Positions 12,001 through 21,000 of a stretch of DNA of 64,000 nt are shown here, in pieces. The stretch covers positions 1 to 64,000 of the forward strand of contig CAVQRZ010000019.1 in assembly GCA_963715335.1 (NCBI GenBank), given 5' to 3'. Origin of the DNA: an uncultured delta proteobacterium (GTDB lineage Bacteria > Desulfobacterota > Desulfuromonadia > Desulfuromonadales > BM103). How positions within the stretch are numbered: position 1 is the stretch's first letter; the number at the start of each line of letters is the position of its first letter. The position numbers were made by a program.

Positions 12001-15000
12001 ACGATCGTCTCCACGGTGGATGTCTTGGCCTTGATCTTGATCTCGACAGGGTCATTAAGGTACCGCTGGGCAATACGGTTGACCTCGTTCGGCATGGTTG
12101 CCGAAAAAAGCGCCGTCTGACGCTCTGGCGGGGTTTCTTTGAGGATCTGTTCAACATCGTCGATGAAACCCATGCGCAGCATTTCGTCGGCTTCGTCGAG
12201 AACTACACTGGACAGGTCGGTAAGGTTCAGGGTGCCGCGCCGCAAATGGTCCTGGATTCGCCCCGGAGTGCCGACGACGGCATGCACACCACGATGCAAC
12301 TGCCGCAACTGCTGGCTCATGCTCTGGCCACCATAAACCGGCAGAACCTGGAAGCCCTTCATGTGCCGGGCATAGGTACGGATCGCCTCGGACACCTGCA
12401 AGGCCAACTCGCGGGTGGGCGTGAGAACCAGTAGCTGCGGATGTTTTTTCTTCAGATCGAGGCGGCTCAGCAAGGGAAGTGCGAAGGCTGCGGTTTTCCC
12501 CGTGCCGGTCTGGGCCTGTCCAAGCAGGTCGCGTCCTTCGAGAAGCGGGGGAATGCTGCGAGCCTGGATCGGCGTTGGTGTCTCGTAGCCGACCTCGTTG
12601 ATGACCTTGTAGATTGCCGGGGCAAGGCCCAGTTCCTTGAAGCTGGTTATGTTGTCTTCTGTCATGTGGTTTGTCCTGGTTCAGTCTATGGAAAAAGCCC
12701 GGACAAGGCCGGGCTGCTTGCGTACCTGGGGGCAAATTATAAAAAATGGAATCGTCAGAAGTACGGGAAGGCGGAGAACTTAACCCATTAGCGGCACAAG
12801 TGCAATACTTATTCGCCGGCGGAATGACGTCGACTACAATTTCCCGGGGGAATTCGAGGTCTGAGGTCCTAGCGCGAGCCGAGTTTGGCAAACAGGATGC
12901 CGGCAGCACGGTTCAGTACGTGATCGCGCGACAGGGAGGTGAAAACCGGCTGCCTGCGATAACCCAGCCGGATGAGTTCATCGATGATCGGCTGGTAGCG
13001 TTTGAACTTTAGCCCCTTGCGCAACGATTTTATGGCCTTGTTCTTGTGGCCGGCGACCAGGTAGACCCTGCTGAGGTGGTAATAGTGGTCAGGATTGTCC
13101 GGTTCCGCCTCAAGCGCTTCGCGACAGAGGGTCATGGCCTGCTGGTACTGTTTGCGCTCCTTGGCCAGGCAGTAGGCCAGCTTTGCTTTGACCGATGGCC
13201 TTGGATCGATAGCGTGCGCCATCTCAAACTGCACCAGGGCAACCAGAGTGTCGTCGGCGTTCAGGGAGAGGTCGCCCTTGTTGAGTAGCGTATCCAGCGC
13301 GTCTGGCATAATCTGGTCTCCGTTAATGTCTGGTCTCCGATTTCCTAGGTTAACCCAATCGACGGCTTTCGGCAATAGCCTCAGCCCTGTGCAACTAACA
13401 ATCCTCCAGCTTAACGATATCCTGAATACCCCGGCCTGCAATCTTCGAGCTTTCGTACCAATAGACGGGATTAGTGTTGCCTGAGTCTATCTACTGATGT
13501 ATTGTAAGGTGTTAATCTTGCAGTTAATTGTGCATGAGCAGTGGCCGCTTTCCAAGTCGTTGGCTCTCTTGACCACAGGTGAGTCGATGGACTGGTGTCG
13601 CCTGGCTTCTTGATGTAGTGAAGAACCCACGGGGCGAAGCGGCCTTGCTGATGGGCTGTCTCCCGGTCCAGGAGCTTTTGGGTTTGTAGGCAATCATTTT
13701 CACAACGCCTCAAGGAAGGATAATCGCTCCATGAAGTTGAGGTCCAAAATTCTTCTGGCGCTGATCTCGGTCGGTGTCATCCCCTTGGTGATCGGACTCT
13801 GGGTGGTCGGCGGCATGGTCGCCAGTGAACTCGAAGTGCAGGTGCAGGTGCGGGCACGGGATTCAGCGAACGTTATCGAACAGACCACCTCCAAAGCATC
13901 GGCAGATGACTTGAAGTTGGTGGCGTTGCTTTCGGGTAACCCGTTTCTGGTCAATGCCGTCTATTCGGCTGGACTGAACAGCGATGTATCGCAGCTGACC
14001 AGCTTCCTGTACACCCTCGACAACCTGTCTTTCGATCAGCTGCAGGTCCTTGACAAGGGTGGTAAGCAGCTTCTTCGCGTGTTCATGAACGACAACCAGG
14101 AGGTCCCGTCAACGTCCGGAATTGAACATCCGGCGATCAAAGCCAGCCTGGATGGTGAGGCCTATGCCGAGAGCGGTCTGTTTGACGGCCACATGGCGAT
14201 CACCTCGGCGGCGCCGATCAGTATGTACGGTGAGCCGATCGGTCACCTGGTCGCCGTCACCTATTTTGACAAGAAACTGGCGACGAGCCTGAAGGCACTG
14301 AGTCATATGGAGATCGCCTTTTTTAACCAAGACGGGATCATTGCAGCGACTGCGCCCGAGTTGAACACCGTCGATTTACAGACCATCCTCACTTCCAACA
14401 GCGATGTCAAAGAGATCAACGGCAAAAAGCACCTCATCACCCATAAAGCGATTGCCGGCAAGGATCACGGCGTGCTCATCGCCCTGGATATCTCGGCGCT
14501 GGATAACGCCAAGTCGAACCTGTTAAACGCCATGATCATCACTGCGCTGATCATGACCAGCGTTTCGGTCCTGGTCGGGCTGCTGGTCTCGACAGGGATC
14601 GTGCGTCCCCTGCGTGAAGTCGTCGCGACCTTGAGGGAAATCTCTACGGGGAGCGGTGACCTGACCCGGGAACTGGCAGTCCGCACCTCCGATGAAATCG
14701 GTGAACTCTCCGGGTGTTTCAATGCATTCCTGGCCAGGCAGAGGGAAATGGTCGGCCGGATTCGCGCCGTGACCGAGGATCTGGGCAAGGCGAACGAACA
14801 GATTCGCGGCGCCTCACACGAAGTCATGGAAGGCGCTGTGAGCCAGTCGCAGGCCCTGGAAGAATCGTCAAAGGGGATTGAGGGGATCGACGAGGCGGCC
14901 GGAGGGATTGCCGAGAGCACCGGCAGCCTGGTGAGGTCGGTCGAAGAGAGCTCCTCGGCAACCCTGGAGCTGGGGGCGACGATCGAAGAGATTGCCGGCC

Positions 15001-18000: not shown

Positions 18001-21000
18001 AGAAGATCCATGAGGGGGCAGACCTGACCCTGCTGGAACATTTCTCTTACATCATCACTTATTTTGACCGCTACGATAACACCTCGTCGGTGATCAACCA
18101 GTTGGCGTTCATGGAAAGCGTCCAGTTCGGCGAGGAACATATTCGCAGCCTGCTGGGCAACAAGAAGGCCTTTGACGAGCTTGATCCGAAACTCTGGACG
18201 GAGCTCTTCTTCAAGCAGGTTTTCGGCAACAAGTACCTCGGCCAGTTCGGCCGCAAGAAAGTGGCCTGTCTGCAGAAAGGGTTGACCCATATCGAGGACG
18301 GTCGTCTGACGATCAAGGCCCTGGTTGACCAGTTGCACCTGATTGAAAAAGAGGAGCGCCTCAATACGCTCCTTCTGTCCCATGTCAAGGAGCGCATCCG
18401 CAACTTCTATTCCAAGTACAACACCCGCGTGGAGCAGGAGGCCCTGCTGGTCGAGATTGCCGACGAGCTCTACAACAAAGGGATCTACACCGGCGATATT
18501 CCCCTCGCCAAGTTCTACAACGTGGTGGTCAGCATCAAGAAGGAAGCGGTCTACATTCACAACCTGCTGCCCAAGATCATCGCCGAGCGCAATACGATGC
18601 TACGTGAGGATTTCCTCGACAATAGCGGCCTCGATCGTTTCTACGTTGAAGAGCTCGAGCGCGAATATTTCTCGCTTAACAACCTTGACCTGCAAGACCT
18701 TTACTCAATCCGCAAAGGCCTGGCGGACTGATCCCCGCTCTCAGACTGATTCCTTATATGAGCCAACCAGCCCTCAACAAGATTCGCAATATCGGCATAA
18801 TCTCACATATTGATGCCGGCAAGACCACGGTTTCCGAGCGCATCCTCTACTACTGCGGCGAAATCCACAAACTCGGTGAAGTCCATGACGGCATGGCAAC
18901 CATGGACTGGATGTCCCAGGAGCAGGCTCGCGGTATCACCATCACTGCGACCAGCACCACCTGCCGCTGGCAGGATATCTGGATCAACCTGATCGATACG
19001 CCGGGGCATATCGATTTCACCATAGAGGTGGAACGTTCCCTGCGGGTGCTTGACGGCGCCGTCGTCATCTTCAGCGCGGTGGAAGGGGTCCAGCCGCAAA
19101 GTGAGTCTGTCTGGCATCAGGCGAACCGTTATAACGTGCCGCGCATCTGCCTGATCAACAAGATGGATCGGGTCGGCGCCGATCACCAGGCGGTTTTGCG
19201 GCAGATGCAGGAGAGGCTTGGCGCCCGCCCGGTCCTGATGCAGTTGCCGGTCGGCGCGGAGGGAGATTTCAACAGCGTCATTGACCTTATCGACGGCTGT
19301 GAACTGACCTTTGATGAAAGCGTGCTGGGTGCGGCAGTGGCCTGCTTGCCGATTCCTGTTGAACAGAAGGATGCCATTGCGCAGGCCCGGGAAGCGGTGG
19401 TCGAAGCTGCCGCAGACTGGGATGATGAACTGCTCGCCGATTTCCTGGACGGCAAGGAGATTGCTGCTGAGCGGATTCGGCCGGCGCTACGCAGGGGCGT
19501 TTTGGCCGGTGAGCTTTTCCCGGTCTTCCTCGGCTCCGCGTTGCGCAACAAAGGGGTTCAGCCGGTTCTCGATGCCGTGATCGACCTGCTGCCTTCACCA
19601 CTTGACCTGCCGCCGGTTATGGCCCATCGTCCCGGGGACAGTGAGGAACTTTTGCTGACCTGTGACAAAACCGGCCCCTTTTGCGCCCTGGCCTTCAAGG
19701 TGCTTGCTGACGAAGGCCGCAAACTGACCTACCTGCGCATTTATTCTGGCCAGCTTAAGGCCGGCGAGACCCTTTTGAATTCCACCCGGAACGTTCAGGA
19801 GCGTGCCGCGCGCCTGTTCCGCATGCACGCGCACAAGCGCGAACGGATTGACGTCGCACATGCCGGTGATATCGTTGCTGCGGCGGGACTCAAGGAGGCC
19901 TTGACCGGTGACTCCCTCTGCAGCGCCGGGCAGCCCCTGCTGCTGGCCGGGCTGGCGGTGCCGGAGCCGGTCGTCTCCCTGGCGGTGGAGCCGAAACAGA
20001 TGCAGGACCGTGACCGGCTGTTCCTGTCGCTGGAGAAATTGCAATGGGAGGACCCGACCTTCAGGGTGCGTGAAGACGAGGATACCGGCCAGACGGTTCT
20101 GACCGGTATGGGCGAGTTGCATCTTGAGGTCGTGCTGCGCAGGCTGGCTGATGATTTTGGTGTCGAAGTGAGCGCCGGGCAGCCGCAGGTTGTTTACCGC
20201 GAAAGCGTATCGACCGAAGTCCGCCACACCGAAGTCTTCGAGCGGGAGATCGATGGCAAGGTCCAAAGGGCTGAAGTCACTCTCCTGGTCGCGCCCCGCG
20301 AGCGTGGTGCCGGGATCGAAATCACCGTGCCTCCACCTGATACGGAAGGCTTGAGTGCCGAGATCCGCCAGGCCCTCGAGCAGACCCTGAATATGGCAGT
20401 ACAGTCCGGCGTGCAGCTCGGCTACCCGATGGTCGACCTGTCCATTGTTGTCGAACAGGTCCCGGTTACGCTCGGGGAGACCACGCCCCTCGGTGTCCGG
20501 GCTGCCGCACAGCGCGGCCTGACCCTGGCGGCCCGTGCCGCAAAGCCGGTGCTTCTCGAGCCGGTCATGGCGCTGGAAATCACGGTCCCGAATGAATTCT
20601 CCGGCAAGGTGCTCGGCGGACTGCAGCAGAAAAGAGGCCGCGTCGAGGGTATGGAGTCCCGGGATGTCGTCGATATGGTCAGGGCTTATGTCCCCCTCGC
20701 CGAGATGTTCGGCTACATGACCGAGCTGCGCAGTGCGAGCCAGGGGCGGGGATCATTTACCATGGAGTTCAGTCACTACGACCGGGCTCCGGATGCAATT
20801 TTGGCAAAGTTCGGTTTAAAGTAAATCTTACAGGGAAATCTATGGAAATCGAAAAAGGTGCAGGAAAAATTGCCAAGTGCTTGAAACTGATGCTCAATAA
20901 CAAACCGGGACACCTGGCAAAAGTGACCGCTGCCATTGCCGAGCTGAACGCCAGTATCGGCGACATTCACCTGGTGCGGGTTGGCCGCACCCACAATACG

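Follow-up and report, generated by a model that had tools for sequence, protein, structure and literature searches.

An operon of Desulfuromonadales with a chemoreceptor, TIGR04442, an MBL-fold hydrolase and an EF-G paralogue may combine two separately evolving modules

Several chemosensory pathways, namely Wsp of Pseudomonas as well as Che3/CrdA and Che7/Cpc7 of Myxococcus, have outputs other than motility. In PP2C phosphatases the DGHG motif is followed by two long helices, and in the MBL-fold phosphodiesterase PhnP an N-terminal cluster of cysteines serves a structural zinc. Among elongation factors, Atkinson (2015; PMC4342817) describes spdEFG1 and spdEFG2 as a division between translocation and recycling, and Margus et al. 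(2011; PMC3150367) mention delta-proteobacterial EF-Gs that were unplaceable between EFG I and spdEFG2.

The operon analysed here lies in a window of 64,000 nucleotides (contig CAVQRZ010000019.1, positions 1 to 64,000) from an uncultured delta proteobacterium of the order Desulfuromonadales. An earlier note had described four co-directional ORFs at this locus, all of which were present exactly where it had placed them, and its family assignments held as well (Table 1). The MCP and MBL genes overlap by 4 bp, and the following spacers measure 4, 26 and 17 nt, the last of them leading to a fifth gene for an ACT-domain malic enzyme. Although part of the same gene string in the window, the latter is not a conserved companion of the cassette; it was absent from all 20 related loci searched at a query coverage of at least 50%.

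Table 1. Features of the operon, in positions of the window
Feature	Position	Strand	Evidence
Methyl-accepting chemotaxis protein (MCP), 787 aa	13731..16094	+	ORF; Pfam HAMP 5.4e-11, MCPsignal 1e-40
MBL-fold metallohydrolase, 265 aa, PhnP/RNase Z-like (Lactamase_B_2)	16091..16888	+	NF038231, 392.5 bits
TIGR04442, whole gene	16893..18731	+	TIGR04442, 932.8 bits
TIGR04442, N-terminal domain, residues 1-191, predicted PP2C/PPM fold	16893..17465	+	domain model and VIA-align
TIGR04442, C-terminal all-helical domain (predicted), residues about 192-612	17466..18731	+	full-length model
EF-G paralogue, 688 aa	18758..20824	+	TIGR00484, 810.8 bits
ACT-domain malic enzyme, 446 aa	20842..22182	+	Pfam malic, Malic_M, ACT

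The comparison of gene order covered 20 TIGR04442-bearing loci of the order, which represent 18 of its families. The MBL and TIGR04442 genes were adjacent in all 20, and likewise in 7/7 loci of the sister order, whereas EF-G followed TIGR04442 in 17 of the 20 and an MCP gene stood upstream in 13. The complete four-gene order, previously stated to be kept in 13 of 13 cases, was found in only 12 of these 20 loci. Among twelve order genomes lacking TIGR04442, MBL and EF-G were adjacent in ten (five of these with the MCP), and EF-G stood alone in two. Separate loss or relocation was seen for every gene of the cassette. In the sister order, TIGR04442 is flanked by MBL on one side and a GAF/sigma-54 regulator on the other, no che gene adjoins it, and the EF-G paralogue, present in three of five genomes, occurs elsewhere on the chromosome, unlinked to MBL-TIGR04442.

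Pfam yielded no family for TIGR04442 at E<=0.01, as had been reported before. The earlier match of its N-terminal domain to PP2C phosphatases was strengthened by a much better model (pLDDT 90.3, pTM 0.89): upon comparison with 48,161 chains by VIA-align, ranks 1 to 36 were all PPM-fold proteins (Z 9.8 to 5.2), the best other fold reaching Z 4.7. The PP2C sequence signature was recognised neither by Pfam nor by hhalign, which returned a probability of 0.3% against 18 SpoIIE-type PP2C domains. Conserved polar residues are H11, E19, R43, E50, N63, C68, E69, Y70, D80, N88, R89, N128, Q145 and K157, and D80 is the only near-invariant aspartate. The model thus supports a predicted PP2C fold that lacks the PP2C sequence signature. 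In the full-length model (pLDDT 89.6, pTM 0.71), helices span residues 192 to 608, for which only generic structural matches were obtained (Z 6.4-8.9 over 50-90 residues). The 'MIF4G/HEAT-like' character proposed for this part in the earlier note is such a generic match, its Z of 6.5-7.7 lying under the noise level stated by the tool for helical proteins. Elsewhere, separate proteins of about 310-330 aa consist of the C-terminal half alone.

A connection to chemosensory signalling emerged from the distribution of TIGR04442. Two lineages belonging to other classes (L068 and L069) have the gene between those for CheB and a GAF protein or a second CheR, within a cluster encoding CheA, AAA_22 (L068 only), two CheW, ZnRibbon-REC, HEAT, CheR and CheB. 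The genome of the window has, on another contig, a cluster with the same gene order (C26:35670-48595; 32-62% identity to L069), which is devoid of TIGR04442 and encodes DUF4388-REC-GAF, CheY, CheA, AAA_22, a CheW-like protein, REC, CheW, zinc-ribbon/REC, HEAT, CheR, CheB, GAF and CheY. The ZnRibbon-REC gene was used as a marker, for which individual proteins served as queries under fixed E-value cut-offs. Among 201 genomes of the order, 78 of the 83 marker genomes had TIGR04442; of the remaining five, two were weak 37-40% matches and three were genomes of 78-79% completeness. Conversely, the marker was missing from 75 of the 153 order genomes with TIGR04442, mainly in three families (marker hits in 0/17, 1/42 and 0/24), and from four of five in the sister order. 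A phylum sample of 401 genomes comprised 13 with both genes, 6 with TIGR04442 only, 6 with the marker only and 376 with neither, and all seven TIGR04442 genomes outside the class had the marker; since related genomes are not independent, such contingency tables overstate the support. TIGR04442 is also common in Nitrospirota, where its neighbours in about 50 loci were the housekeeping genes Slt, trpE, trpG and trpD, with no EF-G, MBL or MCP adjoining; 5/5 TIGR04442 genomes of this phylum had the marker.

In addition, the genes were lost together. TIGR04442 is missing from 3 of 41 genomes of the window's own family. One genome (G158) has kept MCP-MBL-EF-G and lost TIGR04442, and in its 149-bp MBL/EF-G spacer the first ~22 TIGR04442 codons persist as a frameshifted remnant, together with what look like the last ones; exactly ZnRibbon-REC, HEAT, AAA_22 and one CheY are missing from its che cluster. 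In two others (G139 and G155), MCP, TIGR04442 and the orthologous CheA are all missing, and MBL-EF-G is retained. Position within che clusters, co-occurrence and co-loss with a che-cluster component thus independently support a link between TIGR04442 and chemoreceptor signalling.

The cassette MCP combines a periplasmic sensor, for which CHASE4 gave a weak match, with a HAMP domain (residues 289-337) and a cytoplasmic signalling domain of 450 aa, which is of a long, 64H-like length class. This class is shared with the MCP in the che cluster of L068; the alignment of the cytoplasmic part with this MCP covered 444 aa and needed 2 gap openings. Within its own genome, the cytoplasmic part gave a gap-free alignment with a paralogue at C19:126590-128818, and a gapless match over 299 aa was obtained with the MCP at C26:69863-70759; matching five other MCPs required 42-50 gap positions in four cases and 14 in the fifth. 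Adjacency of the MCP tracks the ZnRibbon-REC marker: 13/13 order loci with adjacent MCP and TIGR04442 came from marker-positive genomes, as did one of seven TIGR04442 loci without MCP and none of five MCP-bearing loci without TIGR04442.

The MBL hydrolase scored above the cut-off of NF038231, 'GPMC system MBL fold metallohydrolase' (360 bits), and also matched PRK02113 (2.3e-73) and PhnP (3.9e-31). Invariant among 30 orthologues are HxHxDH (H79, H81, D83, H84), H157, H228 and the C24/C26/C29 cluster. TIGR04442 and this hydrolase might constitute an enzyme/regulator pair, the core of the NCBIfam 'GPMC system', that works independently of chemotaxis on a phosphodiester of a nucleotide or of RNA, the che/MCP neighbours being incidental. 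The constant adjacency, the 4-nt spacing in the window and the intact catalytic motifs are in line with such a pair, as is the phylum sample, with MBL in 18/19 TIGR04442 genomes versus 23/382 others; in the five distant TIGR04442 genomes tested, MBL was found each time on another contig, four times above the cut-off. We nevertheless consider this explanation unlikely: none of the five Nitrospirota TIGR04442 genomes gave an MBL match at E<=1e-20, MBL survives in 10 of the 12 order loci lacking TIGR04442, and three lineages of other classes carry the two genes without linkage. To a similarly low degree we credit an arrangement inherited by descent, in which the neighbours share a transcript but no function and TIGR04442 has a stand-alone role. 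The separate losses and relocations, the non-conserved malic enzyme at the operon end and the Slt and trp neighbours in Nitrospirota point that way, but not the repeated joint loss of TIGR04442 and ZnRibbon-REC, the location within che clusters in two lineages or the presence of the marker in all five Nitrospirota genomes with TIGR04442.

Least probable, with little chance of being correct, is a single pathway in which the chemoreceptor, through a TIGR04442 (pseudo)phosphatase scaffold and MBL, controls a dedicated EF-G and makes translocation or ribosome rescue signal-dependent. The GTPase motifs of the EF-G paralogue, NKMD included, are intact and domains II, III and V canonical, but domain IV has both of its tip loops rewritten relative to the str-type EF-G of the same genome, whose RQSGGRGQYGD and FDGSYHDVDSSEMAFKIAG are replaced by other sequences; against T. 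thermophilus EF-G, domain IV alone scored 32 bits. Further EF-G genes are present on contigs C6 and C22 (47% and 36% identity to the paralogue), in agreement with the earlier note. The rewritten tip is conserved and would therefore fit a special task on the ribosome, and a single pathway would also account for the tight co-directional packing, the frequent position of EF-G behind TIGR04442 and its proximity to MBL in 27/27 order loci having both, directly or with only TIGR04442 between. However, the paralogue occurs in 41 of 48 order genomes without TIGR04442 and is absent from 39 of 153 with it (odds ratio 0.5), G158 shows a clean internal deletion of TIGR04442 with the other three genes intact, the sister-order paralogue sits elsewhere, and neither in Nitrospirota nor in three further lineages does an EF-G adjoin TIGR04442. 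Of the sensory cassette proposed in the earlier note, the chemoreceptor-type link and the PP2C fold of TIGR04442 were supported, and the control of the EF-G paralogue was not.

As TIGR04442 tracks the che-like cluster and not the extra EF-G, the operon appears divisible into two modules, a sensory one of MCP and TIGR04442 joined to one of MBL and EF-G, a reading to which we assign a probability of roughly 0.4. The first would consist of the long, 64H-like chemoreceptor and TIGR04442, the latter serving one chemosensory pathway, here encoded on C26, as either an accessory or an output component. We infer that TIGR04442 is most likely a non-catalytic or re-purposed adaptor working together with the zinc-ribbon/receiver-like protein, possibly resembling the RssB pseudo-phosphatase domain or PP2C partner-switching modules. 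The second would comprise a PhnP-like MBL phosphodiesterase and the EF-G paralogue, which may retain GTP binding and hydrolysis on the ribosome and, given its remodelled domain IV tip, is probably not a normal translocase; through co-transcription this module could fall under the receptor's promoter. The unbroken MBL-TIGR04442 adjacency in order and sister order argues for a link to MBL, which the two-module reading leaves unexplained.

Compared with known systems, the EF-G paralogue is closest by bit score to canonical EF-G (T. thermophilus, 700 bits for the whole protein), only domain IV being strongly diverged, followed by mitochondrial EF-G1 and RRF2 chains (480-487 bits), EF-G2 (298 bits) and Tet proteins (202-288 bits). 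Like spdEFG2/mtEFG2 recycling factors, EFG II and Tet-type ribosome protection proteins, it is an additional EF-G whose G domain is intact and whose function-determining regions are altered. The MBL hydrolase shares the Lactamase_B_2 fold, HxHxDH motif and N-terminal Cys cluster with PhnP and PRK02113-type phosphodiesterases, but is located outside any phn operon, and its nearest solved chains, 6b9v (236 bits) and 3py5/3md7, carry only the annotation 'beta-lactamase-like'; PhnP scored 73 bits. The modelled N-terminal domain of TIGR04442 resembles SpoIIE (Z 8.4), RsbX (Z 8.1; 127 aligned, rmsd 3.5), RssB (Z 7.5) and TAB1 (Z 5.2-5.3), and it shares with RssB and TAB1 the lack of a recognisable canonical metal-binding signature. 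It differs from PP2C proteins by the missing sequence similarity and by an all-beta first half without the two long helices after DGHG, and from RssB, TAB1, RsbU, RsbX and SpoIIE by its fusion to a helical domain of 420 residues that belongs to no known family. REC-PP2C proteins are brought to mind by the genomic link to a receiver-like protein, although TIGR04442 itself carries no REC domain. The che cluster has no recognisable output enzyme domain, in which it differs from Wsp, Che3 and Che7, and TIGR04442 is usually encoded away from it, beside the receptor and the MBL hydrolase. As in those pathways, however, an MCP/CheA/CheW/CheR/CheB core is combined with extra cluster-specific proteins, here a HEAT-repeat protein, receiver-like proteins and a GAF protein, and TIGR04442 behaves like their cluster-specific accessory genes.

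The genes for the chemoreceptor (MCP), the MBL-fold hydrolase, the TIGR04442 protein and the EF-G paralogue are followed by a fifth co-directional reading frame for a malic enzyme. As the MCP and MBL genes overlap by 4 bp and the following spacers measure 4, 26 and 17 nt, the five were regarded as one gene string. A scan for consensus promoters and terminators was indecisive as a whole; it gave a weak promoter-like site ahead of the MCP gene and no convincing terminator inside the operon. Genes for a TPR protein and a DeaD-type helicase lie upstream and divergent to the cassette, and a histidine kinase and a sigma-54 response regulator are encoded downstream of the string. 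The PADLOC defence models matched neither MBL, TIGR04442, EF-G nor the malic enzyme, and for the MCP yielded coiled-coil noise only. The G+C content dips at the TIGR04442 gene (0.534 in the 17-19 kb windows, 0.58-0.63 in the neighbouring ones). The window further holds multihaem cytochrome genes and an HmcB/HmcC-like complex, which fits a metal- or sulfur-respiring organism. In several loci an AtoC-like sigma-54 response regulator, a histidine kinase or both are encoded less than 2 kb from the EF-G paralogue; two of these loci are without MBL or TIGR04442.

Features of the gene string and of related loci. Plain positions refer to the window; C denotes other contig positions of the same genome and L fetched loci (L107 and L108 from the same genome, the others from other genomes).
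Feature	Location	Length	Detection or remark
NrfH/DmsE-like multihaem cytochrome genes	4204-7492		
Promoter-like site, weak	13697-13724		consensus scan
MCP	13731-16094	787 aa	ORF; Pfam: HAMP PF00672 5.4e-11, MCPsignal PF00015 1e-40, weak CHASE4
MBL hydrolase	16091-16888	265 aa	NF038231 (GPMC system MBL fold metallohydrolase), 392.5 bits (cut-off 360); weaker relatives PRK02113, PhnP, RNase Z
TIGR04442 protein	16893-18731	612 aa	932.8 bits (cut-off 150), model positions 1-608 of 608
EF-G paralogue	18758-20824	688 aa	TIGR00484, 810.8 bits (cut-off 659.4)
ACT-domain malic enzyme	20842-22182	446 aa	Pfam
Kinase and regulator pair near EF-G paralogue	22639-25768; L083 11022-14467		
Regulator alone near EF-G paralogue	L077 11414-12859; L080 11595-13052		
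HmcB/HmcC-like iron-sulfur/membrane complex and small cytochrome	27330-30198		
che cluster	C26:35670-48595		without TIGR04442
Zinc-ribbon/REC protein	C26:42388-43311 (L107 7388-8311)		homologues in L068, L069, L191-L194
Further MCP	C26:69863-70759		gapless over 299 aa against the cassette MCP
Second MCP of equal length, with the gene after it	C19:125188-128950 (L108 5188-8950)	787 aa	followed by alpha/beta hydrolase
Third EF-G gene	C22:23902-25953		
Stand-alone paralogues of the TIGR04442 C-terminal half	L070 8976-9926; L071 8971-9900	309-316 aa	sister order

TIGR04442 occurs as a single copy in this genome and was present in 153 of the 201 genomes sampled from the order Desulfuromonadales (113/140 among those of good quality). 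Gene order was compared by BLAST across some 20 kb around TIGR04442 in 20 genomes from 18 families. MBL and TIGR04442 were adjacent in all 20 loci, the EF-G paralogue followed in 17, and an MCP gene stood ahead in 13. The full order of four genes was kept in 12 loci, one of them in a genome that is 65% complete and seems to contain frameshifts. The cassette described in the earlier note is therefore real but less regular than claimed, and its constancy in "13 of 13" loci was a sampling effect. Where the MCP gene is missing, the upstream position is taken by a gene for a radical-SAM enzyme, a GGDEF protein, an AbiEi-like protein, an alpha/beta hydrolase or an RDD-domain protein, or by nothing on that strand. 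Flawless-looking synteny in few genomes can thus conceal freely separable modules. A string of MBL, TIGR04442 and EF-G that resembles those in Desulfuromonadales records is also present on a 1.76 Mb contig titled as a Pedobacter sp. MAG, a label that appears at odds with its content.

The question of whether TIGR04442 and the EF-G paralogue belong together was addressed by crossing their presence, the latter determined by profile search, in the 201 genomes of the order. The paralogue was present in 114 and absent from 39 genomes with TIGR04442, and present in 41 and absent from 7 of those lacking it, corresponding to an odds ratio of 0.5. Among 12 genomes of the order without TIGR04442, five had MCP-MBL-EF-G, five MBL-EF-G and two EF-G alone. 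One of the relatives, G158, belongs to the window's own family and displays the same DeaD-TPR-MCP-MBL-EF-G order at 72-84% identity with TIGR04442 gone; its 149-bp spacer between MBL and EF-G still contains the frameshifted first ~22 codons of TIGR04442 joined to its apparent last codons, a deletion scar. In the sister order the paralogue was found in three of five genomes, far from MBL-TIGR04442. By contrast, MBL and the EF-G paralogue were neighbours in each of the 27 loci of the order in which both were seen, separated by nothing or by TIGR04442 alone. TIGR04442 is not tied to the EF-G paralogue, and for the earlier proposal that the receptor controls EF-G through a TIGR04442 scaffold and the hydrolase we found no support other than that the genes are neighbours within a single order.

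In orthologues of the MBL hydrolase the catalytic HxHxDH motif does not vary, nor do additional histidines and a cluster of Cys residues, and the nearest solved chains are PhnP and 'beta-lactamase-like' proteins without annotation. In the phylum sample, MBL was present in 18 of 19 genomes with TIGR04442 and in 23 of 382 others. As it also outlasts the loss of TIGR04442 within the order and is absent from all five Nitrospirota genomes with TIGR04442 that were examined, the hydrolase is a frequent but not an obligatory companion; the Nitrospirota result led us to reject a general need of TIGR04442 for MBL. Prediction of an MBL-TIGR04442 complex, with both proteins supplied as alignments, scored 0.00, a value that counts neither for nor against contact. 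The best match in this genome to the GPMC transcriptional regulator (NF038230) reached 186.7 bits against a cut-off of 1200 and covered the AAA+ part only. In the sister order, MBL and TIGR04442 are followed by a 936-aa GAF/sigma-54 regulator (NF038230, 1640 bits) in four of seven loci; in a fifth the regulator stands beside TIGR04442 and MBL is displaced. A full-text literature search for 'TIGR04442' or 'GPMC system' found no paper.

The G1, G3 and G4 motifs of the EF-G paralogue, including NKMD, are intact and invariant in 15 orthologues. However, both tip loops of domain IV, the QSGGRGQ and YHDVDSS loops, are replaced. The str-type EF-G on contig C6, 47% identical to the paralogue, reads RQSGGRGQYGD in the first and FDGSYHDVDSSEMAFKIAG in the second loop, and the cassette protein differs at both positions, whereas the genome's two other EF-G genes retain the loops. 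Against solved structures of Thermus thermophilus EF-G, the whole paralogue scored 700 bits and domain IV alone 32 bits. The new domain IV sequence is conserved among orthologues, indicating that the domain is functional but different. The tip loops of domain IV make contact with the decoding centre, and translocation depends on them; their replacement suggests that the paralogue is probably not an ordinary translocase. The genome's third EF-G, 36% identical, displays the reverse pattern: its tip loops are kept, G1 reads GQGDAGKT, and G3 is DTPGY without the catalytic His.

A different set of neighbours for TIGR04442 emerged outside the order. In two families of other classes (loci L068 and L069), TIGR04442 lies within a complete che cluster in the order CheY (seen in L069), CheA, AAA_22 (L068 only), two CheW, a zinc-ribbon/REC protein, a HEAT protein, CheR, CheB and TIGR04442, followed by a GAF protein or a second CheR; L068 additionally encodes two REC proteins, an MCP, HEAT, CheR and CheY. 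In one other family, TIGR04442 has minor-pilin genes and a paired kinase and sigma-54 regulator as neighbours. The genome under study has a che cluster of the same order on contig C26, at 32-62% identity to L069. A search for related loci found TIGR04442 to be common among MAGs that bear the labels Nitrospirae, Thermodesulfovibrionales, Nitrospiraceae or Nitrospira, next to genes for a TPR-Slt transglycosylase, trpE, trpG and trpD, and the zinc-ribbon/REC protein was present in five of five such genomes. A literature search on Geobacter chemotaxis with a HEAT repeat and CheA found no paper.

The zinc-ribbon/REC protein, sought with single proteins at fixed cut-offs, was used as a marker of this cluster. 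In the order, 78 genomes had both TIGR04442 and the marker, 75 TIGR04442 only, 5 the marker only and 43 neither; in the phylum sample the corresponding numbers were 13, 6, 6 and 376, all of these counts including related, non-independent genomes. The five marker-only genomes of the order comprise two weak matches and three genomes of 78-79% completeness. In three large families of the order, and across most of the sister order, TIGR04442 is present but the marker is not. Among the related loci examined, the marker was present with all 13 that have both an adjacent MCP and TIGR04442, with one of seven TIGR04442 loci lacking the MCP, and with none of five MCP-bearing loci lacking TIGR04442. Loss of TIGR04442 in G158 coincides with a che cluster devoid of zinc-ribbon/REC, HEAT, AAA_22 and one CheY but retaining CheA, the CheW genes, CheR, CheB, the GAF protein and a CheY. 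G036, another relative, has lost both TIGR04442 and the zinc-ribbon/REC gene, and in G139 and G155 the MCP is gone along with TIGR04442 and the orthologous CheA. Loss of the whole che cluster together with TIGR04442 was rejected, as an orthologous CheA persists in G158 and G036 (59-70% identity) and only part of the cluster is missing from them.

In all seven zinc-ribbon/REC sequences compared, the conserved Lys of the receiver domain is Glu; the phospho-acceptor Asp is retained in the three Desulfobacterota sequences and is Glu in the four Nitrospirota ones. The proteins have in common a conserved domain of some 90 aa at the C-terminus, to which no Pfam family corresponds. By these residues, they look like pseudo-receivers.

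The cassette MCP spans 450 residues from the HAMP end to the C-terminus, close to the ~448 residues (64 heptads) of class 64H, as compared by length and indels. This cytoplasmic part aligned to the L068-cluster MCP over 444 aa with two gap openings. Four of the five other matched MCPs of the genome showed 42-50 gap positions against it and the fifth 14. The MCP on contig C19 is 47% identical overall and 58% identical, without gaps, over the cytoplasmic 450 aa. A 370-aa alpha/beta hydrolase similar to that following the C19 MCP is encoded upstream of MBL-TIGR04442-EF-G in two loci (L048, L049) of one other family.

An exhaustive search of 1.84 billion representatives with TIGR04442 yielded 205 clusters at E<=1e-3. 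Among the 150 listed, all full-length matches were 600-630 aa long at 25-61% identity, the others being fragments or stand-alone C-terminal halves, and none formed a bridge to a named family. Pfam gave no family at E<=0.01, and an ESM Atlas look-alike search no usable match. Two stand-alone paralogues of the C-terminal half are convergent with a Ser/Thr kinase-PBP-OmpA protein gene, and the one in L071 also adjoins DUF155, an MCP and an HDOD/DUF4388 protein. AlphaFold2 with 44 sequences modelled the full-length protein at pLDDT 89.6 and pTM 0.71 (71.5 and 0.49 in the earlier note), with residues 1-191 beta-rich and the remainder helical; the N-terminal domain alone, with 32 sequences, reached 90.3 and 0.89. 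Compared with 48,161 representative PDB chains, this domain matched PPM/PP2C-fold proteins, a beta-sandwich flanked by helices, at all ranks from 1 to 36. The best was PPM1A (6b67; Z 9.8, 146 aligned, rmsd 5.4), with SpoIIE (Z 8.4), RsbX (Z 8.1), RssB (Z 7.5), SidD, Lem3 and TAB1 also among the matches, and the first other fold appeared at Z 4.7. Foldseek ranked PP2C entries first at a best E of 3.2e-3, with nothing in the PDB at E<=1e-3 for either model. The better model thus strengthens the fold assignment made previously.

Membership among the phosphatases at sequence level did not hold up. When 32 N-domains were aligned by hhalign with 18 SpoIIE-type domains of the same order, the probability was 0.3% (E 0.21). 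These SpoIIE-type domains have seven invariant Asp (D8, D11, D26, D140, D147, D199, D200). In residues 1-200 of 44 TIGR04442 members, D80 is the sole near-invariant Asp, with E19, E50, E69 and D167 partly conserved, as read from sequence conservation. Other conserved polar residues are H11, E19, R43, E50, N63, C68, E69, Y70, N88, R89, N128, Q145 and K157. With a PPM fold, no PP2C sequence match and other conserved polar residues, the N-terminus is read as a PP2C-fold domain whose conserved surface seems to be of another kind, and it may represent a pseudo-enzyme or a re-purposed site. Structural matches to the helical part were generic (Z 6.4-8.9). ENT/EMSY, CID/VHS, MIF4G and B12-binding four-helix identities were rejected on this ground, and the 'MIF4G/HEAT-like' description should not be taken as homology.

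Taken together, a picture of two modules is better supported than control of EF-G. One, chemosensory, would comprise the MCP, TIGR04442 and an unlinked che cluster with the zinc-ribbon/REC protein; the other would consist of MBL and the EF-G paralogue. Both are predicted to be fused here into one transcript, and how each of them works is what we infer. A bolder extension of the two-module picture, which we rate at roughly one chance in ten, is that TIGR04442 represents an unrecognised output or adaptor of a chemosensory pathway type common to Desulfuromonadia, related Desulfobacterota and Nitrospirota. Its PP2C-fold pseudo-enzyme would read the state of the zinc-ribbon pseudo-receiver; in Desulfuromonadales the sensory module would share a transcript with a phosphodiesterase and an EF-G that does not translocate, so that input from the chemoreceptor would determine how abundant or how active a specialised ribosomal GTPase is.

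TIGR04442 is a family of ~600 residues without a Pfam domain, kept in most metal-reducing Desulfuromonadia and many Nitrospirota, and tying it to one defined che cluster with a zinc-ribbon/receiver-like partner is more testable than an order-wide hypothetical. As to known systems, 64H MCPs are reported to number one to three per Desulfuromonas genome (PMC8235581). The EF-G paralogue, whose GTPase is intact while its decoding-centre tip is rewritten and which has a PhnP-like phosphodiesterase as its neighbour in the order, offers a second, independent lead on specialised ribosomal GTPases that can be tested. Margus et al. (2011, PMC3150367) describe some delta-proteobacterial EF-Gs as unplaceable between EFG I and spdEFG2, and Atkinson (2015, PMC4342817) describes translocation and recycling as divided between spdEFG1 and spdEFG2.
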